A stretch of 61,412 bases of DNA, filler included. It is 2 parts of 2 records of this genome, joined end to end, with 100 filler letters (N's around TTAATTAATTAA, not from the genome) between each part and the next. Parts side by side here need not be neighbours in the genome. Positions count along the whole stretch, not along the records: positions 30,657 to 61,412 come from SRR20825019_1888; 1 more part is not named here. One strand, 5' to 3'. A model generated the notes under the pieces. That model was not told the DNA's origin and made no database searches. It was given only the letters and a program-made list of their open reading frames with translations. The first letter of the stretch is position 1, and the number at the start of each line of letters is the position of its first letter. The position numbers and the translations under genes were made by a program. Shown piece by piece: positions 6,940 to 42,500 of the stretch.

Positions 6940-7675
6940 GAGCTGGGTTTTCAGAGGCAAAAGCCTGCAAACCGTGCAAAATAAGCCCGGTCTCGACTGC
7001 GGTAAAGAGACTTTGGCATTTTATCTGTGTCACCAAACCGCCGGTGCCGATCACCACCACCGGGCTGCGCCCAAAGGCTTCGGTCTTGGTTTGGGTGATC
7101 AATTCACGGATCGCGCCGACGTGGCCGTGCACGATTCCGCTGCGAATCGCCGATTCAGTATCACGTCCCACAACCTTCGCGGGAGTTCTCAACGCCACTT
7201 CGGGCAACCGCGCCGTGCGCTGATGCAAGACGGCCGCGCTCATCTCCAATCCCGGCATAATCGTGCCGCCGAGCAGAGTGCCATCGCGCGCGAGCAGAGT
7301 GAGGGTCGTCGCCGAACCACAGTCCACCACGATCACATTTTTACGTGGATAGAGTTTTTGAGCCCCCAGCACATTGGCCACGCGATCCACGCCGAGTTCC
7401 GCCGGACGATGATAGGCCAGTTTCAAACCGTGATCAGCAGTCGAGGTCAGCACACTTGTTTCGATGCCAAAGACTTTCCGGACCAGTTTCACCAACCTGT
7501 CGGTTTGAGCAGGCACCACCGAACAAAGCGCCACGCGATCCACTTTGCCCCGGGCGAGTTTCTGTAATTGTAGGGCGGGGTCTCCAGCGATTCGCACTGA
7601 TCGCATGAGCTTCTCATCACGAAAGACACCGGCGAATAACGTCGAGTTGCCCTGATCGAGCACGAGGGTTTTCAC
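6932..7675 (-). CDS. coaX: Type III pantothenate kinase
   Basis: LDQGNS, LGVDR, VDCGSATT, GGTIMPG and GTGG motifs. Confidence 0.9.
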   Translation of the reverse strand: MKTLVLDQGNSTLFAGVFRDEKLMRSVRIAGDPALQLQKLARGKVDRVALCSVVPAQTDRLVKLVRKVFGIETSVLTSTADHGLKLAYHRPAELGVDRVANVLGAQKLYPRKNVIVVDCGSATTLTLLARDGTLLGGTIMPGLEMSAAVLHQRTARLPEVALRTPAKVVGRDTESAIRSGIVHGHVGAIRELITQTKTEAFGRSPVVVIGTGGLVTQIKCQSLFTAVETGLILHGLQAFASENPAHA

Positions 7676-8310
7676 GTGTCATTCCTCCGAATCAATTCGT
7701 CGATGACTGCCGCCAGGGCGGACGCTCCGGTCACGATTCGATTTTCCGTGGGTGCGGTAAACCAACGAAACACGCGCTCCGGACGAGCCTGCATCTCAGT
7801 GAGATCGTTGTGCACGACCGCATCAACCCCGCTCTGGGAAAATTGAGCCCGCACCGCTGCATGGCGTGCGGCTGCATCGGCATCAACGGTGAGTTTGAAG
7901 CCGATCACCTTGATCGCACGCGGAGAAAAGCTCCGTAAATGCGGGAGAATCTTCGGATTGCGCACAAGGTTCAGAGTGAGGTTTTCCTCATCCGAACTCA
8001 GCTTCTCCGTGGCGACCGCAGCCGGGCGGTAATCGGCCACTGCCGCCGCCATGATCACCGCGGCGTAATCACCGACCGCCAATCGCTTTTGTAAGGTGGC
8101 ACGCAGGCCTTCCGCCGAAAAGAACGCCTCTTTCTCCACCTGATCGTCGGGTAGGATCGCGCCCATCCCGTGGAGCAGGGTGACCTCATGTCCGCAATCG
8201 ACCAACGCCGTCGCCAATGCCGTGCCCGTCGCGCCCGTGCTCCCGTTGGAAAGGTAGCGCACCGGATCGATCGGCTCACGGGTGCCTCCGGAAGTGATCA
8301 GCAGTTTCAT
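7672..8310 (-). CDS. coaB: Phosphopantothenate-cysteine ligase (stand-alone CoaB)
   Basis: ITSGGTREPIDPVRYLSN, AAAVADY, NPKIL, IGFK. Confidence 0.85.
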   Translation of the reverse strand: MKLLITSGGTREPIDPVRYLSNGSTGATGTALATALVDCGHEVTLLHGMGAILPDDQVEKEAFFSAEGLRATLQKRLAVGDYAAVIMAAAVADYRPAAVATEKLSSDEENLTLNLVRNPKILPHLRSFSPRAIKVIGFKLTVDADAAARHAAVRAQFSQSGVDAVVHNDLTEMQARPERVFRWFTAPTENRIVTGASALAAVIDELIRRNDT

Positions 8311-8855
8311 GGCTTCGCCAACGCCGCGATAACCCGCGCGGTGATTTCATCGGGCTCGAGTAACCGACCTCCACCTTCCTCACCGCAGGCGTGAGGACCT
8401 TCCACCGGATCGAGGACGTTGATCCCCCAATCGCGTAATTTTTCCAGTGAAGCCTTCGTCGCGGGATGTTCCCACATGCGATGATTCATCGCCGGAGCAA
8501 GCCACCACGGTTTCTGATCGAGCTCCCAAGCGAGAAAGAGGGCCCCCACCGGATCGTCCGATAAACCTGCTGCCAAACGATTCACGGTGTTGGCCGTGGC
8601 GGGGCAGACCAAGGCGAGATCCGCGGCCCGTGCCAGCTCGATATGATCCAAAGCGCGCCCCTCCTCCCACAAATCGGTGAAGACGGAACGACCGCTCAGG
8701 CCTTCGAGCGTGGCTTTGCCGACAAAGCGCAGGGCGGAGGGAGTGACCACCGTTTGCACCGTCACTCCCTTTTGGGTAAGCTGCGAAATCACCGCGCAAG
8801 CTTTGTAGCAGGCGATGGAACCAGTGAGGAGAAAGAGGACGTTACCGTGGGACAT
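8307..8855 (-). CDS. coaC: Phosphopantothenoylcysteine decarboxylase (stand-alone CoaC)
   Basis: TGSIACYKA, HIELAR, PATAN, APAMNHRMW, ACGEEGGGRL. Confidence 0.9.
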   Translation of the reverse strand: MSHGNVLFLLTGSIACYKACAVISQLTQKGVTVQTVVTPSALRFVGKATLEGLSGRSVFTDLWEEGRALDHIELARAADLALVCPATANTVNRLAAGLSDDPVGALFLAWELDQKPWWLAPAMNHRMWEHPATKASLEKLRDWGINVLDPVEGPHACGEEGGGRLLEPDEITARVIAALAKP

Positions 8856-9606
8856 TGTCGATCAAGCGGGTGGAACCGAGACGCACCGCGCCGTAGCGGC
8901 GATCCGATTTATCTTCGATATAATCAACCACGAATCCCGCTTCACGCAACTGCTGTTCCGCCGTATGCGCATCGGGCGCGGATTTGAGAATCGCTGCAAA
9001 TTGCGGGGCAAGGGCGCGTTCTTCGGTCGACAATCGCACATTGCGCGAGCTCATCGCCAGGCCGTCCGCCTCGCGCACGGTGGAACAGGGGATGATTTCA
9101 GTATCGAGAAAAAAGGCGGCCACCATCCCGCGAATCAACTGAAGCTGCTGGTAATCCTTCTCTCCGAAATACGCGCGATCCGCTCCGATGATTTGCAACA
9201 GCTTCATCACCACCGTAAGCACCCCGGTAAAATGTCCGGGCCGATGCGCCCCACACAATTCGCGACTCAGGTCATCCTCTTGAACCGTGTAAGCCGTGCC
9301 GCCCGGATACATCTCCGCGACCGGCGGCATAAATAACACATCGACACCCGCCGCTTCCATTTTCTGCCGATCCGCCTCATCGGTGCGCGGGTAGTTTTCG
9401 AAGTCCGCCGACTCATCGAATTGCGTGGGATTCACAAACAGCGTCGCCACGACCACATCGCAATCGAGTCGCGCCGCCTCAAGCAGTGAGACGTGACCGG
9501 CATGCAGAGCACCCATCGTCGGCACCACCCCGATGATTTTACCGGACGCGAGATAAGTTTCCCGCAGCTTTCGCCAGTCTTCAACGGTATGCACGGTTTT
9601 CATCAT
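8842..9606 (-). CDS. panC: Pantoate-beta-alanine ligase
   Basis: PTMGALHAGH, FVNPTQF, FGEKDYQQ, GLAMSSRN, RLIDN. Confidence 0.95.
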   Translation of the reverse strand: MMKTVHTVEDWRKLRETYLASGKIIGVVPTMGALHAGHVSLLEAARLDCDVVVATLFVNPTQFDESADFENYPRTDEADRQKMEAAGVDVLFMPPVAEMYPGGTAYTVQEDDLSRELCGAHRPGHFTGVLTVVMKLLQIIGADRAYFGEKDYQQLQLIRGMVAAFFLDTEIIPCSTVREADGLAMSSRNVRLSTEERALAPQFAAILKSAPDAHTAEQQLREAGFVVDYIEDKSDRRYGAVRLGSTRLIDNVPR

Positions 9607-29446: not shown

Positions 29447-30425
29447 CATTTGGGGTTTGATCGGCGTCTCGTTTTTGGCGGGTTGCCAAACCGCGCCGGA
29501 AAAATCGTCGCCGCCTTTGGCGGCGGAATCATCCTTGGTCGCTCCGTCTGATCCCATTCGATCGGACGATATCATCATTGTGGACGGGCAATCGTTTCAC
29601 ATCGGCACACGCGTGATTACCTGGAAAGAAAAAGAGGGTTACGATGCCTATAATTTCACGCCCACTGAACTTGCCGGCACTGCCAATCATGGAGCACGAC
29701 GTTTACCCTCCACCGAAGTTAAAGGGGATTGGGTCGATCCCGAAACCCCGTGGGATATGCCATCTCTGCAACGCTACGTGGATCAGTTTGTTCTGCACTA
29801 TGACAGCGAGGGATTCAGTCGCCGTTGTTTCGAGGTGCTGCAACGTCGCGGATTGAGCGCGCATTTTCTTTTGGATCTGGATGGCACCATTTATCAAACG
29901 CTCGATCTGCGTGAGCGCGCTTTTCATGCCCGTGAATCCAACAGTCGCTCCGTCGGTATCGAAATCGCCAATGTGGGCGCCTTTGGTCCGGAGGAACCGG
30001 ACGAATTGAAGGAGTGGTTCATTTCCGACGAGGAAGGGAAACCGGTCCTGAAGATTCCCGCGCAATTGGGTGATCCCCAATTCCATCGGACAGATTACGT
30101 TGCGCGTCCCAATCGAAGCGAAATTGTCACGGGCACGATCAATGGGCGTGATTTACGTCAATACGATTTCACGGCCGAACAATACGCTGCACTGATCAAA
30201 CTCACCGCGGCGCTCCATCGGATTTTCCCCCTGATCACACTCGACCAGCCCCGCGATACGGAAGGAAAGCCGATCCACGAAAAGTTACCCGATGCGGCGT
30301 TGGAGAACTATCAAGGACTGATCGGCCATTACCATTTACAACAAATCAAAATCGATCCCGGCCCCGCCTTCGACTGGGAGCTACTCATCGAAGGCGCCCG
30401 CCACGAATCGAAACACCAAGAGTAA
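29418..30425 (+). CDS. N-acetylmuramoyl-L-alanine amidase (Amidase_2) lipoprotein
   Basis: Lipobox FLAGC, VLHYD, SAHFL, AFHA, SVGIE, IGH...KIDPG; start inferred. Confidence 0.88.
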   Translation: MASPSPWRNNIWGLIGVSFLAGCQTAPEKSSPPLAAESSLVAPSDPIRSDDIIIVDGQSFHIGTRVITWKEKEGYDAYNFTPTELAGTANHGARRLPSTEVKGDWVDPETPWDMPSLQRYVDQFVLHYDSEGFSRRCFEVLQRRGLSAHFLLDLDGTIYQTLDLRERAFHARESNSRSVGIEIANVGAFGPEEPDELKEWFISDEEGKPVLKIPAQLGDPQFHRTDYVARPNRSEIVTGTINGRDLRQYDFTAEQYAALIKLTAALHRIFPLITLDQPRDTEGKPIHEKLPDAALENYQGLIGHYHLQQIKIDPGPAFDWELLIEGARHESKHQE

Positions 30426-30556
30426 CCTATTAGGTTACTTTCGTTTACGGTCATCTGCCGGAAATCAGAGAAAGATTGTAACCCAATAGGTTGGAGATAA
30501 GCACTTTCATGACAGATCTACGCCAGCACCAAGAGTAACCTAATAGGTTACTCTTG
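30414..30556. repeat. Three regularly spaced CTAWTAG-core palindromes at the contig end
   Basis: GTAACC cores at 30422, 30478 and 30535; the last copy has 13-bp perfect arms. Confidence 0.8.
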
Positions 30557-30656
30557 NNNNNNNNNNNNNNNNNNNNNNNNNNNNNNNNNNNNNNNNNNNN
30601 TTAATTAATTAANNNNNNNNNNNNNNNNNNNNNNNNNNNNNNNNNNNNNNNNNNNN
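30557..30656. other. Artificial contig spacer
   Basis: N-run, TTAATTAATTAA (stops in all frames), N-run. Confidence 0.98.
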
Positions 30657-31859
30657 GCCGACGAGCCGACAACCGCGCTCGACGTCTCCATCCAGGCGCA
30701 GATCCTCGAGCTGATGCGCGAGCTGTGCCGGGAGCGATCCGTGGGCATGATTCTGATCACCCACGATATGGGGGTGATCGCCGATGTGACCGACCGGGTC
30801 GCGGTCATGTACCGCTCCCGTCTTGTCGAGGAAGGCCCGACGGAAAAAATTCTGGGAGACCCTGATCACGATTATACCAAGAGCCTGATCAGCGCGGTGC
30901 CACGGCCCGATGTCCGTCTCGCCCGGTTCCCGGTGGTCGAATATATCGAGAGCGCCGGCGACCGGCGGGACAGTATCGATGTCGCGACCCACTGGCTCGG
31001 TGCGGGACGGTCGGAGTCCGGTGGCGAGACGATGCTCCGGGTCGAGGATCTGCATGTTCGCTTCCTGACCAAATTCGCCTTTCTCAAGAAACACCGGATC
31101 TATCTCGACGCGGTTAACCGGGTTTCCTTCGATATCCGGCAAGGCGAGGTATTCGGTCTTGTTGGAGAGAGCGGCAGCGGCAAGTCGACCATCGCCCGGG
31201 CCATAGCGGGGCTCTATAAACCGAGCGGCGGCCACATCCATTTCGCCGGTGCCGACCTCACGGAGGTCAGGACCGAGTCGGAGATGGATCGCTACCGGCG
31301 GCAGATGCAGATGATCTTCCAGGATCCTTTCTCATCGCTGAACCCACGCATGAAGGTGCTGGATATCGTCTCCGAGCCGATCCGTTTCCACGGCCTCGCC
31401 TCAGGCGGTGCGGAGACCCGGCAGATCGTCATGGATCTGCTGGAGCATGTCGGTCTCGGCGCCGAGGCGGCGCGCAGATATCCTCATGAGTTCTCCGGCG
31501 GTCAGCGGCAGCGCATTTCCATTGCCCGCGCACTGGCCACGCGCCCGCGCTTCCTGATCTGCGACGAGCCGACATCCGCACTCGACGTCTCGATCCAGGC
31601 CCAGATTCTGAACCTGCTCAAGGACCTGCAGGCCGAACTCGGGCTCACCATGCTCTTCATCAGTCACGACCTGCCTGTGATCCGGCAGATGTGCGACCGG
31701 GTCGGGGTGATGCGGCACGGCAAGCTGCTGGAGGTGGCGGAGACCGAAACCCTGTTCGAGAAGCCGCAACATGAATACTCACAGCATTTGCTTGACCTGA
31801 TGCCGAAGCTTGGTCTGCTGTCGCACGAGGAGATCGCCGGACTGGAGATGGCTGACTAA
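30657..31859 (+). CDS. Dipeptide/oligopeptide ABC transporter dual ATP-binding protein, 5' truncated
   Basis: Begins in frame at [37 protein letters not shown]. Confidence 0.93.
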
Positions 31860-31955
31860 AGCTTGCGGGCTCCTGGCTCATGGCGTCTGTTGCTTGACAG
31901 AGGCGCGGCGCGGACGCACCTGTTCATGAGATCATTTTGAAAGTCGGGACCGGTC

Positions 31956-32846
31956 ATGTCGGACTATATCGAGCTGAAAAACAGGGGCGTGTTGTCGGTC
32001 AGCGGGCCGGATGCACGGAAATTCCTGCAGGGGCTCATCTCCAACGATGTCGAGAAAGTCACGCCTGAGCGGGCGATCCATGCCGCGTTCCTGACCGCCC
32101 AGGGTAAATACCTCTTCGATTTCATGATTGCCGAGGTCGGCGGCGCACTGTTGCTGGACTGCGAAGCGGACCGGTTGGCCGACTTCCAGAAACGCCTGAA
32201 GCTCTACAAGCTGCGCTCCGACGTCACCGTTGAGGATGTGAGCGCGAAATTCACCGTGCTTGCCATCACCGGGGATGATGTATCCGGCGCACTGGGTATT
32301 GATACCGAAGCCGGAGTGGCGAAGGCAGTTGAAGGCGGCGCGATTTTCACCGACCCGCGCCATGCCGGGCTGGGCGCCCGTGCGATTGTCGGGACGGAAA
32401 ATCTGGCGGATTTCATCGCCGCGTCCAGTCTCACCGAAGGAACGCTGGAGGCATATGACCAAGCCCGCATCAGGCTCGGCGTGCCGGACGGCACCCGGGA
32501 CATGCAGCTTGAGAAAACCATTCTTCTGGAAGCCGGGTTCGATGAGCTGAACGGCGTCGACTGGAAGAAGGGCTGCTATATGGGCCAGGAGCTGACAGCC
32601 CGGACAAAGTACCGCGGTCTGGTGAAGCGGCGGCTGATGCCGGTGCGCATCCTGGACGGAGAGATGCCGGCACCGGGCACGCCGGTGATGCGGGACGAGC
32701 GCGAAGTCGGCGAAATCCGGTCGGGTGCCGGAACCATGGCGCTGGCCATGTTGCGGGTGAACGTCCTCGAGGATCTGGAGCATGCCGTGCTCAGCGCCGG
32801 CGGCAGCACGGTGCTGCCGGTGAAGCCGGACTGGGCGACGTTCTGA
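31956..32846 (+). CDS. ygfZ: Folate-binding Fe-S cluster protein YgfZ
   Basis: GPDARKFLQGL and KGCYMGQELTAR signature. Confidence 0.93.
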   Translation: MSDYIELKNRGVLSVSGPDARKFLQGLISNDVEKVTPERAIHAAFLTAQGKYLFDFMIAEVGGALLLDCEADRLADFQKRLKLYKLRSDVTVEDVSAKFTVLAITGDDVSGALGIDTEAGVAKAVEGGAIFTDPRHAGLGARAIVGTENLADFIAASSLTEGTLEAYDQARIRLGVPDGTRDMQLEKTILLEAGFDELNGVDWKKGCYMGQELTARTKYRGLVKRRLMPVRILDGEMPAPGTPVMRDEREVGEIRSGAGTMALAMLRVNVLEDLEHAVLSAGGSTVLPVKPDWATF

Positions 32847-32943
32847 TCCTGCACTTCTAGCGCGTCAATTCGCGGCGGCGCGGCACCATTAATGTGCCGC
32901 CTGTTCGCTTGTGCGAGATGACCGCCGGGCCTAGCGTGGGCTC

Positions 32944-33876
32944 GTGTCCAAGTTCATTGTTTTCAAACAGTATGTCGCCCGCCTGCCGGCTCCGGTTCGT
33001 GGCGTCCTCCTCATGGCCATTGCCGCGGCGATGTTCGTCTGCATGCACGCGATCATCCGGAATCTCGGTAAGAACGCGGAGCTGCATCCGTTCGAGATTG
33101 CCTTCTTCCGCTCCTTCCTCGGTCTCTTCGTTCTCGCCCCGCTGCTGATCCGACAGCGCTTCCGGCCGCTGCATACAACGAACATGAAGCTGCTTTTCCT
33201 GCGCGGGGCGGTGAATGCGGCGGCGATGCTGATGTTCTTCTACGGCCTCTCGATCACACCGCTGGCTCAGGCGACGGCACTCGGTTTCACCGCACCGCTC
33301 TTCGCCTCCCTGCTGGCAATGCTGTTTCTCGGCGAAGTCGTGCGGCTGCGCCGCTGGATCGCCATTCTGATCGGCTTTGCCGGCACGCTGGTGATCATTC
33401 AACCCGGTGTGGAAGAGGTCGGTCTCGGCCCGATCCTGATTCTCTCGGCGACGGTGGTCTGGTCTTTCGCGCTGATCATCATCAAGTTCCTGACCCGGAC
33501 CGAATCCAGCGTCACCATCACCGTCTATGCATCGATCTTCCTGTCGCCCTTCACGCTCGTCGCCGCCAGCTTCTTCTGGCGCTGGCCGACATTGGAAGAG
33601 GCGGGCTGGCTCTGCCTCATCGCGTTCCTCGGCACCATCGCCCAGACCGCGATGAACCAGTCTCTCAAACTGGCCGACGCCTCGGTCGTATTGCCGATGG
33701 ATTTCAGCAAGATGATCTGGGCGGCCTTTCTCGGCTTTTTCATGTTCGGTGAGCTGCCGGGGCTTTACACCTGGATCGGCGGAGCCATGATCTTCATCAG
33801 CACCACCTATATCGCGGTGCGTGAGTCGCGTCTGAAAAAGCAGGCGGTGCCGTCCAGCGACAAGTCGTCCGGTTGA
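32944..33876 (+). CDS. DMT/EamA family transporter
   Basis: About ten hydrophobic segments, EIAFFR, LFLGE, FGE.P. Confidence 0.9.
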
Positions 33877-33946
33877 CCCGGGACGTCATCCCGCGCATAA
33901 GCAGCCCCAAATTTCGCATTTCATCCACAGGAACGGGTCCCGAAAG

Positions 33947-35533
33947 ATGGCAGCCGATCTCGTCCGCGTTTCCCGCGCTCTTATCTCTGTTTCCGATAAA
34001 ACCGGTCTGATCGAGCTCGGCAAGGCGCTTGCGGCGCACGGCGTCGAGATCCTTTCGACCGGCGGCACCGCGAAGGCGCTGGCCGACGCGGGCGTGCCGG
34101 TGAAAGAGGTCGCGGACCATACCGGCTTCCCGGAAATCATGGACGGCCGGGTGAAGACCCTGCATCCGGCGATCCATGGCGGCCTGCTGGCGCTGCGTGA
34201 CAATGACGAGCATGTCGCGGCGATGGAAAAGCACGAGATCGCGCCGATCGACCTGCTGGTGGTGAACCTCTACCCGTTCGAAAGCACCCTGGCCTCCGGC
34301 GCCGGTTATGACGACTGCGTCGAGAATATCGATATCGGCGGCCCGGCCATGATCCGCGCGGCCTCCAAGAATCACGGCCATGTCGCCACTGTCGTCGATC
34401 CGGAGGATTACGCGGACCTGATCGCCGAGCTGGAAGCGAACAAGGGCGGGACGACCTACGCGCTGCGCCGCAAGCTCGCCTCTGTCGCCTATGCCCGTAC
34501 GGCAGCTTATGACAGCGCCATCTCCACCTGGCTGGCGGGTGAGATCGGCGACACCTATCCGCGCCGCATCACCTTCTCCGGTGCCGCTCCGAAGAGCATG
34601 CGCTATGGCGAGAACCCGCATCAGTCCGCCGCCTATTACAGCAGCGGCGACAAACGCCCCGGCGTCGGCAATGCGGAGCAGATCCAGGGCAAGGAGCTGA
34701 GCTTCAACAATCTGAACGACACGGACGCCGCCTTCGAGCTGGTGGCCGAGTTCGACGCCCAGCCCGCCATCGCCATCATCAAGCACGCCAATCCGTGCGG
34801 CGTCGCGGTCGGTGACGATCTTGTCTCCGCCTACCAGCGTGCCTTCGCCTGCGACACGGTCAGCGCCTTCGGCGGCATCATCGCCGCCAACCGGACGCTG
34901 GACGGCGCCACGGCGGAAGAGATCTCCAAGATCTTCACCGAGGTGATTATCGCGCCGGACGCGGATGAAGACGCCCGCAAGGTGCTGGCGGCGAAAAAGA
35001 ACCTCCGCCTGCTGCTGACCCACGGTATGCCGGACCCGAGCGTTGCTGCACGCACCGTGCGCAATGTTGCCGGTGGTTATCTGGTGCAGGACAAGGATAA
35101 TGGCCGGGTGACGGCTGCCGACCTGAAGGTCGTCACCAAGCGGCAGCCGACCGAGCAGGAACTGGCCGACATGCTGATGGCCTTCCGGGTCTGCAAGCAT
35201 GTGAAGTCGAACGCGATCATCTATGTGAAGAACGGCGCCACGGTCGGCATCGGCGCCGGCCAGATGAGCCGGGTCGACAGCGCCCGCATCGCCGCCTCCA
35301 AGTCCCGCGACATGGCCGAAGCCGCTGGTGCGAGCCAGCCGGGTACTATCGGCTCGGTGGTTGCTTCCGACGCCTTCTTCCCCTTCGCAGACGGGTTGCT
35401 GTCAGCGGCAGAGGCCGGCGCCACGGCGGTGATCCAGCCGGGCGGCTCCATGCGGGATGACGAAGTGATCGCGGCGGCGGACGAAAAGAACCTTGCCATG
35501 GTCATGACCGGGATGCGGCATTTCCGGCATTGA
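33947..35533 (+). CDS. purH: Bifunctional AICAR transformylase / IMP cyclohydrolase
   Basis: [43 protein letters not shown]. Confidence 0.98.
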
Positions 35534-35573
35534 TGGCCGGAGGAGTGTAAGAAAAGGGTGTTGTTGTCTGAGG

Positions 35574-36362
35574 TTAACTGAATTCAATACAAGTATATTG
35601 ATAACCCTGACCTGAAGAGTCGAAGTATTGGCTTTCGATGGCGGAATTATAGGAACTCCATACGGGGCCTATCTCCATCGGAGGTCCACTAGATTCGCCT
35701 TTATCGAAAGCCTGACGGGCATGAGAATTTCGCGGTAGCTCATCCCCGAAATTATAGCTTGTCATAAACGGGGCTGTTTCGCTTTTGGTGGACCAAATAA
35801 TCATTCCATCGCGTGACACGACAAATGCAATAGGACGTGGATTGAGGCTGACGTAGCGTAATGCACTAGCCTGTAATGAACATTCGAAACGAGATCCTAA
35901 ATTTCTTAGAGTTTCCGTGTTCCATTTAGAATATTTAAATTCTTCTCGGATGAGATTGGCGGGCATGAGAAGCCATGCTGCAAAAATGTTGGCTTCGTGT
36001 TCCTGATTGTTTCGAAAATCATTAAGAGAATCTTCTGAATCTTCAAATCTATCGCTTGAATCGCGATGGCACATGAAATGCCCAAGTTCATGTGCATATG
36101 TGAACCGAAGCCGTCTCCTGTTTTGTATCTTTGAATTTAGGGCAATTGTCCAATGTCGATCAGGCTTAGTTCTAACTAAGCAGCCTTCTAGGCTTTCAAA
36201 AGGCTCGTGTATTACAGACAGGCTATCTTGGAATCCGCTTGCTTGAATTGCGCCCTCGATTAGAGCATCAAGATTGATCGGATACGTGTTGGGGCCATGA
36301 TCTTGCCAGAGCTTTGTTAACCGAATGGCCTCTTTTTTAGGGTTTGTCGTCTGACTTCTCAT
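35574..36362 (-). CDS. ImmA/IrrE (CapP-like) zinc metallopeptidase
   Basis: [12 protein letters not shown] (HExxH), [17 protein letters not shown]-like segment, C-terminal [17 protein letters not shown]-like region. Confidence 0.9.
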
Positions 36363-36672
36363 TGAATCCTGACGCTATGCGTTCGAGTGTGCGTTTGTCA
36401 TCTTCTGATAGTTTTCGAAAGCGCCTAAAAAATGCGTCTTCTATATGCTGTTCATTATACTCAGAAAAATCGTCATTAAGTAGAAAATCTGGCGAAACGC
36501 TCAGGCAATTGGCGATTTTTAATAACAGTTCGGCAGACGGTTTAGCGTTCTTTTTGTTCTCAAGCTGCCAAACGTAGGCCTTTGAGCTTCCAATTGCCGC
36601 TGCCAGCTCCTCGAGCGTTTTGTTCTGATCTGTCCGGGCTTTTCTGAGCTTTTCACCAAATTTTTGAGACAT
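36337..36672 (-). CDS. XRE-family HTH repressor (CapH-like)
   Basis: FGEKLRKAR...TLEELAAAIGSSKAYVWQLEN..PSAELL; C-terminal AFFRRFRKLS; overlaps the peptidase start by 26 nt. Confidence 0.92.
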   Translation of the reverse strand: MSQKFGEKLRKARTDQNKTLEELAAAIGSSKAYVWQLENKKNAKPSAELLLKIANCLSVSPDFLLNDDFSEYNEQHIEDAFFRRFRKLSEDDKRTLERIASGFNEKSDDKP

Positions 36673-36698
36673 CGTCCATCTGCATTAAAGGTGGGTGC

Positions 36699-36755
36699 TT
36701 GACAGGAGTATATCGATGGCTATACCTTCTCTCAAGTGTAGTGATGACTACACTT
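36699..36755 (+). promoter_or_regulatory. Sigma70 promoter and palindromic operator for the DUF1508 gene
   Basis: TTGACA at 36699, (GC)TATACC at 36721, then AAGTGTAGT-GATG-ACTACACTT at 36734-36755; AGGAG RBS at 36770. Confidence 0.75.
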
Positions 36756-36782
36756 TTGTAGAGCAAGAAAGGAGTTAAGTAG

Positions 36783-36971
36783 ATGGTTGAATCATGCATC
36801 GGTTCCAATGGCGATAAGTGGGAGATTTACAAAGATAGTGCTGGCGAATGGCGTTGGCGGCGGACGGCCACGAATGGTCGGATTGTTGGAGCATCTGCGG
36901 AGGGCTACGCCAACAAAGCCGACTGCATTGGCAACGCCATTCGTAATGGAATGGGTTGCACGCCCTCTTGA
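36783..36971 (+). CDS. DUF1508 / YegP family protein, single domain
   Basis: WEIYKDSAGEWRWR...NGRIVGASAEGY..KADC pattern; strong RBS 8 nt upstream. Confidence 0.88.
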   Translation: MVESCIGSNGDKWEIYKDSAGEWRWRRTATNGRIVGASAEGYANKADCIGNAIRNGMGCTPS

Positions 36972-37028
36972 TCGGGCTGCAATCGGTGGGGTGCCGTCGG
37001 ATATGGATGAGAAGCGAGCCTGAGAGGA

Positions 37029-38081
37029 CTATGTGTGCCGCAACGCATGCTTCGCAATCTTCGCCATTACCGATGGCAGTCCCGCTTCGCCGATCTTCTC
37101 CACCGGATGCCAGAAACTGTCCGGCGGCCGTGTGCCCGTGGCCCGGCTGCGATAGACTGTCAGCTCCAGATGGAAATGCGTGAAGGTGTGGCGGACCATG
37201 CCCGGCAATTCCGTCCATTGCGCCTTGATCGGGGCTTCGGCGAGGGATTGGTGCAGCGGGTGTTCCGCCTCGCGCCATTCGCTTGACGGGATTTCCACCA
37301 TGCCCCCCAAAAGCCCCGTTTGCGGGCGGCGCCGGAGCAGGATTTCGCCGCGGCCGTTGACGATCCAGAAGGCGACGCCCTTACGGGTCGGCTTCGGCGC
37401 CTTCGTCTTCTTTTTCGGCAAGTCTTCGGCGATCCCGGCGATCCGCCCCGCGCAGGAGGCGCTCCACGGACAGGTCAGGCATTTCGGTTTGCGCGGGGTG
37501 CAGATGGTGGCGCCGAGATCCATCACGGCCTGGGCATAGTCGCCGGGCCTTTTTTGCGGGGTCAGGGCGGCGGAGAGGCGTTTCAGTTCCGGCTTGGCGT
37601 CGGGCAGCGGGATTTCGACCGCGTGCATCCGGGCCATGACCCGTTCGAAATTGCCGTCCACGGGCGTTGCCGGGATATCGAAGGCGATGGCGGCGATGGC
37701 GGCGGCGGTATAGGCACCGATTCCCGGCAGCTCCAGCAGGGCTTCTTCAGTGTCGGGGAAGCGCCCGCCATGAAGATCGCGGACGACGCCGGCGCATTTA
37801 TGCAGATTCCGGGCGCGGGCGTAGTAGCCGAGCCCGGCCCATTCGGCGAGCACGTCTTCCTGTGGCGCATTGGCCAGCGCGACAACGCTCGGCCAGCGCT
37901 CCAGAAACCGCGTGAAATAAGGCCCGACGACAACCACGGTGGTCTGCTGCAGCATGATTTCGCTGAGCCAGACATGGTAGGGATCGGCACGTGTTCCGGG
38001 CTCCGCGCGCCAGGGCAGGCGGCGGCGATGCCGGTCGTACCAGTCGAGCAAAAGGGCGGGCAGGGTTTCAGGCGAGGTCAC
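37029..38081 (-). CDS. mutY: A/G-specific adenine glycosylase
   Basis: WLSEIMLQQT, GLGYYARARNL, LPGIGAYTA, VDGN, C..RKPKC..C.....C, HTFTHF. Confidence 0.97.
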   Translation of the reverse strand: MTSPETLPALLLDWYDRHRRRLPWRAEPGTRADPYHVWLSEIMLQQTTVVVVGPYFTRFLERWPSVVALANAPQEDVLAEWAGLGYYARARNLHKCAGVVRDLHGGRFPDTEEALLELPGIGAYTAAAIAAIAFDIPATPVDGNFERVMARMHAVEIPLPDAKPELKRLSAALTPQKRPGDYAQAVMDLGATICTPRKPKCLTCPWSASCAGRIAGIAEDLPKKKTKAPKPTRKGVAFWIVNGRGEILLRRRPQTGLLGGMVEIPSSEWREAEHPLHQSLAEAPIKAQWTELPGMVRHTFTHFHLELTVYRSRATGTRPPDSFWHPVEKIGEAGLPSVMAKIAKHALRHT

Positions 38082-38147
38082 GTGTGCGTTTTTTCCATTG
38101 GGTCAGGCGCAGGAGCCCTTACATTAGTGCGCAAGGGGAGCGCGGCA

Positions 38148-38687
38148 ATGTCCGAGAAGACGGCAGCAGGGAAAACACTACAACCGGCATCGTGGCGCCG
38201 CCGTATCGGCGGCCTTGCCAGGCTTGCCGCTGTCGCGCCAACGCTCGGCGACAAGGCGCTGCGCCGTCGCGGTTTTGCCGAATCGCGCATTGTCAGCGAC
38301 TGGCCGGCCATCGTCGGCGAGGTGCTGGCCCTGCAATGCGCGCCCGAAAAGCTGGTCTTCGCCAAGGGGACGACCGGAGGCGGCACCCTGCATCTGCGTG
38401 TGGCCGGCGCCGCTGCCCTGGAAATACAGCATCAGATCCCGGTCCTGCTCGAACGCATCAACACTGTTTTCGGCTATTCCGCCATCGCCCGTATCGCCCT
38501 GAAGCAGGGTCCGCTGCCGAAGCGGCGCGAAAGCCTGCGCCCGAAATTGCGACCGCTGAAACCGGAAGAGGTCGCGCGGGTCACGGAAAGCGTCGCGGGG
38601 GTCGAGCGGAGCGATCTGCGGCAGGCGCTGGAAGATCTCGGCAAGGCGGTGACCGCCGCCGGAGCCAAAAAACGGACCTATTCCTGA
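38148..38687 (+). CDS. DUF721 / DciA family protein
   Basis: RRGF....W..IVG, LEIQH....ERIN..FG....I.L.QGP; position between mutY and dsbA is typical of Alphaproteobacteria. Confidence 0.82.
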   Translation: MSEKTAAGKTLQPASWRRRIGGLARLAAVAPTLGDKALRRRGFAESRIVSDWPAIVGEVLALQCAPEKLVFAKGTTGGGTLHLRVAGAAALEIQHQIPVLLERINTVFGYSAIARIALKQGPLPKRRESLRPKLRPLKPEEVARVTESVAGVERSDLRQALEDLGKAVTAAGAKKRTYS

Positions 38688-38766
38688 CATGATTCGGCTG
38701 CAGGCTATAACGGATCGGGCAATGCCTGCCGGAAGGCCCGCCGGTCGGGAGGATGTGTTACGGGGT

Positions 38767-38820
38767 CCAGTTGTTGCGGTTCGCCCAGTTCTTGCGGCTC
38801 GCCCAGTTCTTGCGGCTCGC
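38767..38820 (+). repeat. 18-bp tandem repeat, three copies
   Basis: CCAGTTGTTGCGGTTCGC followed by CCAGTTCTTGCGGCTCGC twice. Confidence 0.9.
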
Positions 38821-38866
38821 AAAGAGTCACATTAATATTTCAACATGTTGTAACAGGAGGCAAATC

Positions 38867-39484
38867 TTGCGCCGTAGAACGCTAAATCTTGTGTTGGGTC
38901 TGGGGTTGATCGCGCCCTTCACCGCCGGGTTGTCCTTTCCGGCCCTGGCCGACGGGGTCGATATGGACGTGGCGACCGCGCCCCGTGTGATCGGCGATCC
39001 CGATGCCAAGATCTCCCTCGTCGAATATTTCTCGATGACCTGCCCGCATTGCGCCCGGTTCCATACCGAAGTGCTGCCGCAGTTGAAGGAAAAATACATC
39101 GATACCGGCAAGGTAAAGCTGGAATTCAAGGATTTCCCGCTCGACCAGTGGGCGCTCCGTGCCTCCGCCATGGCCCGCTGTCTTGAAGGTAAGCGCTATG
39201 TTGGCATGGTCGATCTGCTGATGAAGAAGCAGGCGGACTGGGCACGCGGCGACAACCCGTTCACCGAGCTGGTCAAGTACGCGAAGCTGGCGGGACTTTC
39301 CGAAGAGCGCGTGCAGGAATGCATGACCGACGAGAAGCTGCTGGATTTCATCCTGAACGAGCGGCTGAAGGCGACCAAGGAACACGACATCAAGGCGACC
39401 CCGTCTTTTGTCATGAATGGACGCAAGCTGGACGATGTGTTCAGCTTTGAATCCTTCGAAGAGGTGATCGAGGACGCGCTTTAG
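38867..39484 (+). CDS. DsbA-family thiol-disulfide oxidoreductase
   Basis: AGGAGG RBS then TTG start; EYFSMTCPHCA, FPLD, ATPSF. Confidence 0.9.
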   Translation: MRRRTLNLVLGLGLIAPFTAGLSFPALADGVDMDVATAPRVIGDPDAKISLVEYFSMTCPHCARFHTEVLPQLKEKYIDTGKVKLEFKDFPLDQWALRASAMARCLEGKRYVGMVDLLMKKQADWARGDNPFTELVKYAKLAGLSEERVQECMTDEKLLDFILNERLKATKEHDIKATPSFVMNGRKLDDVFSFESFEEVIEDAL

Positions 39485-39533
39485 GCGCTGTCTGCTGATC
39501 GCGCATTGGGGCCGGGTAAGGAGCGTCTAACGG

Positions 39534-42500
39534 GTGCATCTTTCTAAGCTGCGTCTTTCGGGCTTCAAATCCTTCGTCGATCCGACCGAGCTGTTGATCG
39601 AGGAAGGGATGACGGGCGTTGTCGGGCCGAATGGCTGCGGCAAGTCGAATCTCGTCGAAGCCCTCAGATGGGTGATGGGAGAGACCTCCGCCAAGCAGAT
39701 GCGCGGCGGCGAGATGGACGACGTGATCTTCGGCGGCACGACTGGCCGCCCGGCCCGCAATCTCGCCGAAGTCGGCCTGATGGTGAATAACGAGGACCGC
39801 AAGGCACCGGCGGCCCTCAACGATGCGCCGGAGCTGGAAGTGATCCGGCGCATCGAACGCAACAAGGGCTCCGCCTACCGGGTCAATGGCCGGGAAGTGC
39901 GGGCCCGCGATGTGCAGCTTCTGTTTGCCGATGCCGGCACCGGCGCCCGGTCCGCCGGGCTGGTCAGCCAGGGCCGGATCGGCGCCATCATCAACGCGAA
40001 ACCGTCCGAGCGCCGCATCCTGCTGGAAGAGGCGGCGAATATCCGTGGCCTCTATGCCCGGCGCCGCGAGGCGGAGCTGCGGCTGCGCGCGGCGGAAACC
40101 AATCTCGAACGGCTGGAAGACGTGCTGAAGGCGCTGGAAGGCCAGTTGCACGGGCTGCGTCAGCAGGCCAAGCAGGCCCAGCGCTACCGGACGGTCGCCG
40201 AACAGATGCGCTCGGCCGAATCGGTGTTGCTGCATAGGCGCTGGGAAGCGACCAAGGAAGAACGGGCGGTTGCTGGCAAGGCTCTGGCCGAGGCCGGGGA
40301 CGCGGTTGCTGAAGCGACCCGCAAGGCGGCGGAGGCCGGCACGATCCAGACCGAGACTGCGGCCAGCCTGCCGTCCCTGCGGGAGGATGAGGCAAAGGCG
40401 GCGGCCGAGTTGCAGCGCCTGACCCTGGCCCGGGCCGAACTGGATAACGAGGAACGCCGCATCGTTACCGCGAAGAGCGAGGCGGAATTGCGTCTGCGCC
40501 AGATCGCGGACGATCTTGAGCGCGAGCAATTGCTGTCCGCCGATGCGGAGGAAGCGCTGGAACGGCTGAAGGGCGAGCATGCCGGGATTGCCGCCGCCCG
40601 CGAGGGCGAGGCGGAAGCGCAGGCGGAAGCCGCTGCGGCGCTGACCGAGATCAACCGCGCCGCCGATGCGCTGGAAGTTAAACTCTCCGAAATGACCGAG
40701 CATATCGCGACGACGGAGGCGCGGCGGGCCAGCCTGCAACGTCAGGCCCGGATGGCGCGGGAGCAGGTCGAACGGCTGACCCGGCAGATCGCGGGGCTTG
40801 AGGATGAACGGCAGCGCTTGAAGGACTCGGCGGCGGGGCCGGGGGAAGTCGAGGCGGCGGAACAGGCGGTGACGGAGGCCGAAGCGGCGCTGGAGGCGGC
40901 GCGTGCGGCGGCCGACGGATCGGAAGCTGCCCGAGAAGCCGCATCGGAAGCGGAAAGTGCCGCCCGGGACGCCTTGCAGCAGATCGAAGCCGGGCTGGCG
41001 AAGCTGACGGCGGAGGCGGGTGCACTCGACCAATTGCTGGCCGGTGATGGCGCTGACGGGGATGCGGCGCCGATTCTCGATTCCGTGTCGGCGGAGCCCG
41101 GTTACGAGACCGCGCTCGGTGCGGCGCTGGGGGATGATCTGACGGCACCGCTGGCCGAATCGGGCGGCGATCATGTGCGTTACTGGAACGGGAAGACGGG
41201 GGCGGATTCCGCAAGCTCCCTGCCGGCCGGAAACTCACTACCAGACAGTGTGGAGCCTCTGGCAAAGCGTGTGACGGGACCGGCCGCATTGGCGCGCCGT
41301 CTCGCGGCAACCGGCGTGGTTGCGGATTACGAGACCGCAAAGGCGCTGCAGCCCGCTCTGAGGGACGGCCAGCGTCTGGTCAGCCTGGATGGCGGGTTGT
41401 GTCGCTGGGACGGTTTCGTTGTCGCGCCCGGTGCGCCGAGCAGTGCGACTGTGCGGTTGCAACAGCGCAACCGGCTTGGCGCCCTGCAGGCCGAAATTGC
41501 TGTGGTGGAAAAGGACCGGGCGGGAGCGAGCGAGCGATTCGATGCCGCCCGCACCTCGCAGCGCGAAGCCGTGGAGGCCGAGAAGGCCGCACGCGAAGCT
41601 ATGCGGGCAGCCTTCTCGGAAAGTGAAGTAGCCCGAACCCGGCGCTCCAAACTGGCGGCCCTGCTGGCCGAGATCGACTCGAAGCTCTCCGCCATCGACG
41701 ATACCAAAGCCCGGTACGAGGGTGAGATCGAGGAGGCCGAACAACAGCGGGTGACGGCCGAGGCGGCGGAGGTCGAGCTGGACGATGTCGCCACTCTGCG
41801 GGCCGAGAGCGCCGCACTGCGGCAGGAGCTGGCGGAGACCCGCAACGCGCTGGCGGAAGCCCGAAGCGCCCATGATCATCTGGTGCGGGAGGCGGAAACC
41901 CGGCGCACCCGGCTGTCCGCCATCGAGGGCGAGCTTCGCTCCTGGTCGGACCGGAACGAGCGGGCGGCCTCACGCAAGGAAGAGCTGACCGAACGGCAGA
42001 TCGCGGAACGGACGGATATCGCCCGGCTGGAAGCGCGCCCGGCGGAAATCGAGACCCAGCGCAAGGCTTTGATCGATCAGATCACCCAGTCCGAGACCAA
42101 GCGAAAGCAGGCGGCGGATGTGCTGAGCGAGGCCGAGGCCCGCCAACGCACAGCCGACGATGTGGCGCGTCAGGCGGAACGGGAGCTGGCGGAAGCGCGC
42201 GAGACACATATCCGGGCCGAAGGTGCGCTGGAGCAGATCAATCAGGCGACCAATGCCTTGCGGGAGAGGATCGTCGAGCGTCTGAAATGCCGTCCGGACG
42301 AGATCCTGACGAAGGCCGGGATCGATCCTGAGGGGCCGCTGCCGGACGCGGACGAGGTTAGCAACCGGCTGGAACGGCTGACCCGGGAGCGGGAACGGAT
42401 CGGGGCGGTGAACCTGCGGGCGGAGCAGGAAGTCGAGGAGCTGGAGCAGAGAATCGCCGGCATGGAGAGCGAGCGGGACGACCTGATCCAGGCGATCTCC

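Follow-up and report, generated by a model that had tools for sequence, protein, structure and literature searches.

The DNA analysed here, referred to below as the window, is a joined stretch of 61,412 nucleotides (nt) along which all positions are counted; the part of interest, positions 30,657–61,412, derives from the record SRR20825019_1888. It harbours a small islet of foreign composition that encodes a CapH/CapP-type regulator pair and a single DUF1508 gene. The islet is 1,495 nt long (35534–37028) and separates the stop codons of two convergent genes, purH (33947–35533, plus strand) and mutY (37029–38081, minus strand), both taken from the list of open reading frames (ORFs) and confirmed by Pfam. 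The composition profile displays a GC content of 0.41–0.48 within the islet as against 0.60–0.67 in the flanks. Three ORFs are accommodated in this space. A 262-amino acid (aa) M78 peptidase of the CapP type (35574–36362, minus strand) is overlapped by 26 nt by the gene for a 111-aa XRE repressor of the CapH type (36337–36672, minus strand), both being recognized in the ORF list, by Pfam and by PADLOC. Divergent from this pair lies a DUF1508 gene of 62 aa (36783–36971, plus strand; ORF list and Pfam), whose ATG is preceded at approximately 8 nt by the sequence AAAGGAG. The composition profile and the ORF list thus agree with a preliminary description of the locus, made from the letters alone, which had noticed an AT-rich islet without integrase between purH and mutY, and the overlapping XRE and HExxH peptidase genes and the divergent DUF1508 gene with its strong ribosome-binding site are all found where that description had placed them. 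The islet genes are not chance ORFs, because relatives with 60–76% identity occur in 199 metagenome stretches and the structure models are confident. No integrase, excisionase, replication or structural gene is present in the ORF list within the islet, no tRNA gene is found in 30000–42000, that is, within 6 kb of it, and no direct repeats or target duplications are seen by eye at its ends.

The junction between purH and mutY can be followed in related genomes. A class-wide MutY search yielded a genome with a 95% identical MutY, and the relatives of that genome provided ten congeners with identities of 83–95%. Five of the ten have an empty junction, with 6–19 nt between the two stop codons, and a congener with approximately 90% nucleotide identity aligns with the window up to 35540 and resumes at 37036. 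The remaining five carry other cargo, amounting to at least three other unrelated small inserts. As the site is empty in one half of the congeners and differently occupied in the other half, the junction is an insertion hotspot for small cassettes lacking an integrase or a tRNA gene. The islet is best explained as a complete three-gene unit of the CapH/CapP kind that was gained by horizontal transfer.

The assignment of the repressor derives from profile and structure comparisons. The protein matches HTH_3 in Pfam (3.3e-12) and the capH model of PADLOC (8.6e-25, profile positions 3–102 of 103). Its best match among solved structures is the helix–turn–helix (HTH) domain of Escherichia coli CapH (7T5U, 4.1e-13), with YVWQLEN aligned to YLWELEN. 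The tail of the repressor matches the CapH dimerisation domain (7T5W, 1.5e-4), the window segment HIEDAFFRRFRKL being aligned with HLDDAFFRGYKNL and DAFFR being shared, and the alignment predicts a C-terminal two-helix dimerisation domain that contains the F–R cleavage site. In E. coli, CapH is cut between F82 and R83, as mapped by Edman degradation, and an R83A variant remains uncut, as reported by Lau et al. (2022, 10.1101/2022.04.27.489752). Residues F81-F82-R83 of the window protein, counted by hand from the translation, correspond to this site residue for residue, as the preliminary description had suggested. W35, which according to Calloji et al. (2026, 10.64898/2026.05.16.725639) anchors CapH on the GAF domain of CapP, is also present. 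The gene layout is that of a CapH system: capH lies upstream of and overlaps capP, the pair is divergent from the cargo, and palindromes, the predicted operators, are located in between.

The peptidase is similarly well placed. It matches Peptidase_M78 in Pfam (3.8e-19) and the PADLOC capP model (3.2e-49, profile positions 9–215 of 242), and both capP and capH scores are far above those of the related RmrA and PD-Lambda-2 models. By sequence, the best match among solved structures is Thauera CapP (7T5T, phmmer 2.4e-19), followed by IrrE. The HELGH motif (residues 91–95) aligns with that of 7T5T, and H91, E92, H95 and E121, which constitute the HExxH zinc site and the distal glutamate ligand, are invariant across 27 aligned CapP sequences. 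A model built on these 27 sequences reaches a predicted local distance difference test score (pLDDT) of 90.4, and its top Foldseek match is again 7T5T (E 6.7e-18, TMq 0.76, 274 columns, 23% identity in the structural alignment), with IrrE/PprI next. The modelled chain consists of a peptidase, an HTH and a C-terminal GAF-like domain; because it aligns to 7T5T over 274 columns, the GAF-like domain is present despite the protein being about 30 residues shorter than E. coli CapP. The column that holds the cysteine switch is occupied by Asp108 (codon 36039–36041), the loop RFEDSE being equal in length to SFQCSD of Thauera. Aspartate is found at this column in all five members of the window's CapP clade and cysteine, by eye, in many of the other 22 aligned sequences. 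The FEDSE of this clade, in place of F.C.., may represent a form of the switch that uses aspartate. Asp108 is no bar to membership of the CapP family, since the cysteine-switch loop is reported in only 33% of CBASS CapP proteins (Lau et al. 2022), CBASS denoting the antiphage signalling system based on cyclic oligonucleotides. The suggestion that the XRE–peptidase pair is CapH/CapP-like is therefore upheld by profile, fold and cleavage motif alike, and the comparison proposed at the outset with CapH, CapP and PF07411 returns family matches for all three proteins.

The 110-nt region between capH and the DUF1508 gene (36673–36782) contains the elements expected of such a switch. It was aligned across 11 loci: the window, three other DUF1508-bearing loci and seven that bear DUF3892 genes. 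An inferred plus-strand promoter for the DUF1508 gene, TTGACA-16 nt-TATACC, occupies 36699–36727, its TTGACA being located by the alignment and its -10 by eye. A promoter-like site for capH, TTGAGA-17-TATACT, is returned by the promoter scan on the minus strand, from 36735 to 36707. Two putative operators accompany these promoters. The palindrome GTATA-N10-TATAC, operator 1, is supported by the alignment and overlaps the plus-strand promoter at 36699–36727, covering its spacer and -10 as well as the -10 of the minus-strand promoter. Operator 2, recovered by an inverted-repeat search at 36734–36755, is the perfect palindrome AAGTGTAGT-GATG-ACTACACTT and lies immediately downstream of the plus-strand promoter. 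TTGACA is invariant and both related palindromes (roughly AAGTRTAGYG...CRCTAYACTT) are kept in all 11 loci, operator 2 in the form AAGTRTAG...CTAYACTT with either type of cargo. Similarity then drops 3' of operator 2, before the cargo, which consists of DUF1508 in four loci and of two DUF3892 genes in the other seven. The locus therefore displays cargo swapping right behind a conserved CapH operator and promoter, and the layout is the one expected of a repressor that silences both its own operon and the cargo, with CapH as the protein predicted from the sequence to bind there.

The closest described counterparts are the CapH/CapP pairs of the CBASS loci of E. coli MS115-1 and Thauera sp. K11, as presented by Lau et al. 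(2022) and Calloji et al. (2026). Shared with these are capH overlapping capP, the divergence of the pair from its cargo, the three-domain fold of CapP, HExxH with its distal glutamate, W35, and DAFF–R at equal residue numbers in the dimerisation helix. The window locus differs in having no CBASS genes, a single 62-aa cargo, a CapP of 262 rather than approximately 290 aa, aspartate for the switch cysteine and a low overall identity. In CBASS, genes for a CD-NTase and an effector stand beside the regulators, whereas here only DUF1508 faces the pair, followed by mutY; for this reason the locus is not a CBASS, and DUF1508 is, as first proposed, the only gene facing the regulators. By analogy with the published E. 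coli and Thauera systems, activation by single-stranded DNA (ssDNA), cleavage of CapH and induction of DUF1508 would follow one another. In undamaged cells CapH dimers would sit on the two palindromic operators over the back-to-back promoters and repress their own operon together with DUF1508. Upon DNA damage or phage replication, ssDNA would bind CapP between the peptidase and GAF-like domains and open the active site; CapP would then cut CapH at the F82–R83 bond, which lies in helix 1 of the dimerisation domain, CapH would lose its hold on DNA and the 62-aa DUF1508 protein would be made. The islet is probably a cassette of this type, derepressed by damage and carrying DUF1508 as its sole cargo.

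Damage-activated M78 peptidases that cleave XRE repressors are also represented by DdrO/IrrE (PprI) of Deinococcus and by ImmR/ImmA, and IrrE/PprI proteins are the next-best structural matches of the window peptidase. In those systems the regulator genes are unlinked to their targets or arranged in another way, and what they govern is a regulon or the induction of an element, whereas the window pair faces a single adjacent cargo gene. XRE–M78 pairs control many mobile elements according to Lau et al. (2022), and the islet is foreign DNA, so that it could be viewed as what a decayed prophage or integrative element has left of its ImmR/ImmA-type immunity module, DUF1508 being next to it by chance. 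This is very improbable: the islet, at 1,495 nt, retains none of the integrase, excisionase, replication or structural genes of such an element; its best profile and fold matches are CapP and CapH, inclusive of the GAF-like domain and the CapH tail; the same promoter and operators drive a swapped small cargo in relatives; and the other occupants of the purH–mutY site are likewise small cassettes of one to three genes with no integrase among their listed ORFs.

The cargo protein is a single-domain member of DUF1508/UPF0339. It matches the Pfam model at 6.6e-8 (32.8 bits, cut-off 22) and, by sequence, the structures 3bid, 2k7i and 6q2z of the PDB. Within the family it belongs to a WRWRR subfamily, and it carries three cysteines, C5, C48 and C59. 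The subfamily pattern is WRWRRTA.NG.IVG...EGY.NK.DC..NA.RNG, with 13 columns invariant over 53 sequences. The structure model (pLDDT 95.7) contains four strands and one helix, and in a fold search it retrieves HVO_2922 (6Q2Z; Z 6.9, root-mean-square deviation 2.1 over 50 residues) and NMB1088 (3BID; Z 5.7). These two proteins and Atu0232 (2K7I) share the same single-domain fold, and single DUF1508 domains are reported to form homodimers; the window protein differs from the three in an extra N-terminal strand, the three cysteines and the WRWRRTA motif. A methane monooxygenase inhibitory subunit, immunity proteins and an anti-Cas protein were also returned as fold relatives and were rejected, their Z scores of 4–5.6 lying within the noise of the search.

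Related loci show how frequently DUF1508 stands alone behind this switch. The eight closest CapP relatives (61–62% identity) belong to Rhodobacteraceae or to a Roseibium metagenome-assembled genome. Seven of them face two DUF3892 genes, the architecture that Lau et al. (2022) give for Sulfitobacter sp. CW3, and share the promoter and operators of the window. The eighth (L008) faces a DUF1508 gene whose product is 73% identical to that of the window, with a gene for a Tle1-like alpha/beta hydrolase approximately 90 nt past it and RmrT/RmrA further on. In a metagenome scan with a DUF1508 alignment, CapH/CapP adjoins DUF1508 in three of the best 80 of 199 relatives (L051, L052 and L056). The first of these and L008 are one element. 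The L052 stretch resembles a plasmid, and its DUF1508 gene is followed by a 419-nt gap and then by an Abi_2-like gene of lower GC content. L056 is a second low-GC three-gene islet, located in a chromosome with a GC content of 0.60–0.66, where a periplasmic binding protein gene flanks it on one side and a branched-chain amino-acid permease gene on the other. Nucleotide similarity between this islet and the window, about 66%, begins inside capP and continues almost to the end of the DUF1508 gene, which in L056 is followed by a hairpin (by eye); in the window, the terminator scan detects no terminator-like site 3' of DUF1508. A further case is the plasmid pDFL14-10 of Sulfitobacter sp. DFL14 (L201, 8073–9171), where DUF1508 is divergent from a 111-aa HTH gene and an ImmA/IrrE gene that is truncated; in the PLSDB gene table, which is incomplete, 1.3 kb separate DUF1508 from the following annotated gene. 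The ImmA/IrrE protein of this plasmid measures only 179 aa and its gene is overlapped by a recombinase gene beside a Tn3 transposase, so that the switch there may be disabled. Altogether, four of the five distinct CapH/CapP–DUF1508 loci (the window, L056, L052 and pDFL14-10) carry a lone DUF1508, L008 being the exception. Since no further cargo is seen in these four, the lone DUF1508 is no one-off deletion product, and the circumstance named in the preliminary description as telling against it, homologues that always carry more genes past DUF1508, is not encountered.

Several observations weigh against a damage-derepressed cassette with a function of its own. The replacement of the switch cysteine by aspartate across the window's CapP clade suggests that auto-inhibition may differ or be absent. 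The -10 of the plus-strand promoter, TATACC, is weak and was missed by the promoter scan, and no RNA run figures among the eight sequencing runs in which half or more of the sampled words occur. The fold matches of the DUF1508 protein above noise are confined to other DUF1508 structures, all of unknown function, and the protein finds no match among the PADLOC defence-system models; a defence role, which the preliminary description had offered beside a stress role, is accordingly not supported as stated. The pairing is also rare. A sample of 401 Alphaproteobacteria genomes, centred on G001, contains full-length CapP at approximately 30 loci, and 33 of its genomes possess DUF1508. CapP is found next to DUF1508 only in G001; opposite the remaining 29 CapP loci lie, by eye, nucleotidyltransferase-like, DUF2188-like and other genes. 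Finally, a Tle1-like hydrolase gene follows DUF1508 at approximately 90 nt both in L008, behind CapH/CapP, and in L049, behind a fusion of an HTH and an M78 domain, and DUF1508 could have an accessory role towards an effector which the window lacks.

This last point raises the question of whether the islet is a deletion remnant, in which the original cargo comprised DUF1508 and an effector such as the Tle1-like hydrolase and the small gene left behind is useless alone. The Tle1-like genes of L008/L051 and L049 match PF09994 at 4.6e-64 and 2.6e-62, respectively, and PADLOC returns no match for their products; as the two hydrolases are 54% identical, the DUF1508–Tle1 pair is old. A complex prediction for the DUF1508 protein and the hydrolase of L008 gave a score of 0.00, with controls not run, and is evidence neither way. 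The recurrence of the lone gene in four of five loci tells against a remnant, as does the spacing in the window, where only 57 nt lie between the DUF1508 stop and the mutY stop. A tblastn search for a trace of the Tle1-like gene anywhere in the window recovers none (best E 1.8). Moreover, the DUF1508 ORF is intact and retains all 13 subfamily-invariant residues, and members of the WRWRR subfamily are encountered by themselves, both on small plasmids and among housekeeping genes. A remnant origin is consequently regarded as quite improbable, and we do not think that the cargo merely served as one subunit of an effector now absent.

The reading of DUF1508 as a cargo in its own right is accompanied by its association with switches of other kinds. 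A hidden Markov model built from the CapP alignment was applied to the 80 metagenome DUF1508 loci, with a divergent M78 ORF sought within 1 kb. Such an ORF lies upstream of DUF1508 in seven loci, all of the three-cysteine subtype: CapH/CapP in three, an HTH–M78 fusion in three and a short XRE and M78 pair in one. When 78 of the metagenome loci are compared and only those whose upstream sequence reaches 1.5 kb or more are counted, a divergent M78 gene accompanies six of 19 three-cysteine DUF1508 genes and none of 30 others (Fisher p 0.002, although related loci share labels and the independent events number three or four). The fusion regulators span 373–381 aa and match PD-Lambda-2_B of PADLOC (2.6e-28); together with a small upstream ORF they stand divergent from the three-cysteine DUF1508 gene in L049 (151–1959), L050 (3362–5189) and L053 (3370–5189). 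The L053 locus adjoins BrxL, and a further large ORF there was taken by eye for PglZ. The short pair (L066, 67–1543) consists of an XRE gene and a 196-aa M78 protein without the GAF-like domain, divergent from a lone three-cysteine DUF1508. On a plasmid of Pseudomonas tremae (L202, 2078–4106), an HTH–M78 fusion of 382 aa, a DUF4411/PIN gene and a 51-aa DUF1508 gene follow on one strand. This plasmid is conjugative, and the DUF1508 group lies near its replication gene. A YegP (DUF1508) homologue also follows CapK/CapS in 57 of 443 loci, in an account that leaves the choice between immunity and a general stress response open (EMBO J 2026, PMC13373217). That arrangement resembles the window in being an ssDNA- or DNA-damage-activated repressor system adjoining a DUF1508 homologue; as described there, it relies on an unrelated sensor, a kinase with a STAS repressor instead of a peptidase with an XRE protein.

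Members of the same subfamily are also found in other contexts. The WRWRR subfamily appears as a solitary cargo gene on plasmids of 3.5–7 kb from Klebsiella, E. coli, Salmonella and others. Of its 36 plasmid records, most are mobilizable or cryptic plasmids of this size with 5–7 genes; the copies on them are shorter, at 51 aa, and about 70% identical, and they are assigned to the WRWRR subfamily rather than to its three-cysteine subtype. The small ColE1-like plasmids of Enterobacteriaceae are exemplified by L199 (E. coli, 4,936 bp) and L200 (Klebsiella, 3,944 bp), besides 34 further records. The DUF1508 domain occurs in 27 phage records, of which 26 are mycobacteriophages. In PLot-type mycobacteriophages a more distant DUF1508 domain (43–46% identity) forms the N-terminal part of a 193-aa protein encoded next to lysin B, as in Helpful, where gp42 (L204, 2510–3091) directly follows the lysin B gene. 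Chromosomal copies of the subfamily lie in housekeeping contexts, after a malate synthase G gene (by eye) and beside a UPF0047 gene. In L042 (3881–7111) a DUF1508 gene of the same subfamily is located between the genes for the large and small subunits of ribonucleotide reductase, on the same strand.

Such a distribution bears on whom the cargo serves. A different proposal retains the switch as described, with which it is compatible, and envisages a cargo that acts as an anti-defence protein or modulator of DNA transactions on behalf of mobile elements, for example by masking or protecting ssDNA or by inhibiting host nucleases, rather than as a host defence or stress protein. The plasmid and phage records are in keeping with it, and so are the closest CapP relatives, which reside on contigs of plasmids or conjugative elements beside relaxase- and ArdC-like ORFs (by eye). 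Tandem DUF1508 proteins are, in addition, said to resemble the ssDNA binders sPC4 and Whirly (PMC12065111). The malate synthase G, UPF0047 and ribonucleotide reductase contexts are nevertheless chromosomal, no known anti-defence family matches the DUF1508 protein, and no PC4 or Whirly chain rises above noise in the fold search, in which the query was a monomer whereas the proposed likeness concerns a dimer. A cargo that serves mobile elements in this way is considered unlikely, if less so than a remnant origin.

The links to several switches and the other contexts together argue for a small protein that is able to function by itself and is called for once ssDNA or damage arises. Its recurrent placement behind ssDNA sensors, the reported dimers of single domains and the published sPC4/Whirly likeness lead to a guess at its function: the cargo may possibly be a small homodimer that acts on its own in the damage response, its binding partner being single-stranded nucleic acid or a DNA-processing protein, to the benefit of either the element or the host, but this is put forward with considerable doubt. 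A broader proposal, slightly better favoured and still short of an even chance, is that the three-cysteine WRWRR DUF1508 protein might be an autonomous ssDNA or damage-response effector. It would have come under the control of at least four unrelated damage switches in repeated, independent events (CapH/CapP, the HTH–M78 fusion, the short XRE and M78 pair, and CapK/CapS), besides being carried bare on small plasmids. The window cassette would then be the minimal mobile form of an unrecognized one-protein function in stress, immunity or counter-immunity, dropped without an integrase into the purH–mutY hotspot.

Parts of this picture have precedents. The CapH/CapP regulators have been published, together with the way they work and their occurrence beside small DUF cargo, as has YegP behind a damage switch with another sensor. 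The legend of Fig. 6F in Lau et al. (2022) names a CapH/CapP 'DUF3892 system' (Sulfitobacter sp. CW3) and DUF2188 systems. These resemble the window in that CapH/CapP faces only small proteins of unknown function; the window differs in the cargo family, DUF1508, and in having one gene as opposed to two or more. The preliminary description did not recognize the pairing as a known one, and this holds in part: CapH/CapP with DUF1508 is found in none of the main texts searched, and the supplementary tables of Lau et al. (2022) and of the CapK/CapS paper may list such loci, whereas the notions of a small DUF cargo and of YegP behind a damage switch (the 57 CapK/CapS loci) are not new. YegP/DUF1508 proteins are widespread and several have been solved, none with a known function, and the cassette offers a minimal handle on this function: a sensor, a repressor and a single output of 62 aa fit into 1.5 kb, at a junction that exists without insert in half of the congeners. 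The link of the cargo to several unrelated damage switches suggests that the protein acts when ssDNA and DNA damage are present. Should the cargo be only a general stress protein, the islet would be one more ordinary example of CapH/CapP regulation.

The hotspot itself, where small cassettes accumulate without an integrase between the stop codons of two convergent genes, has other occupants. G408 (L165) and G409 (L167) carry a three-gene insert that includes a LemA-like ORF (by eye), and G412 (L168) carries a single low-GC gene of 396 aa. In G136 a low-GC (0.27–0.5) cassette of two genes, encoding 282 and 278 aa, is present on the minus strand (L135, 7157–8976; genes 7177–8861); it is the only occupant that was scanned, and it has no Pfam or PADLOC match. 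A related two-gene version, encoding 263 and 274 aa, is found in G414 (L166, 331–1943, minus strand), and this two-gene cassette is a candidate for a system of its own.

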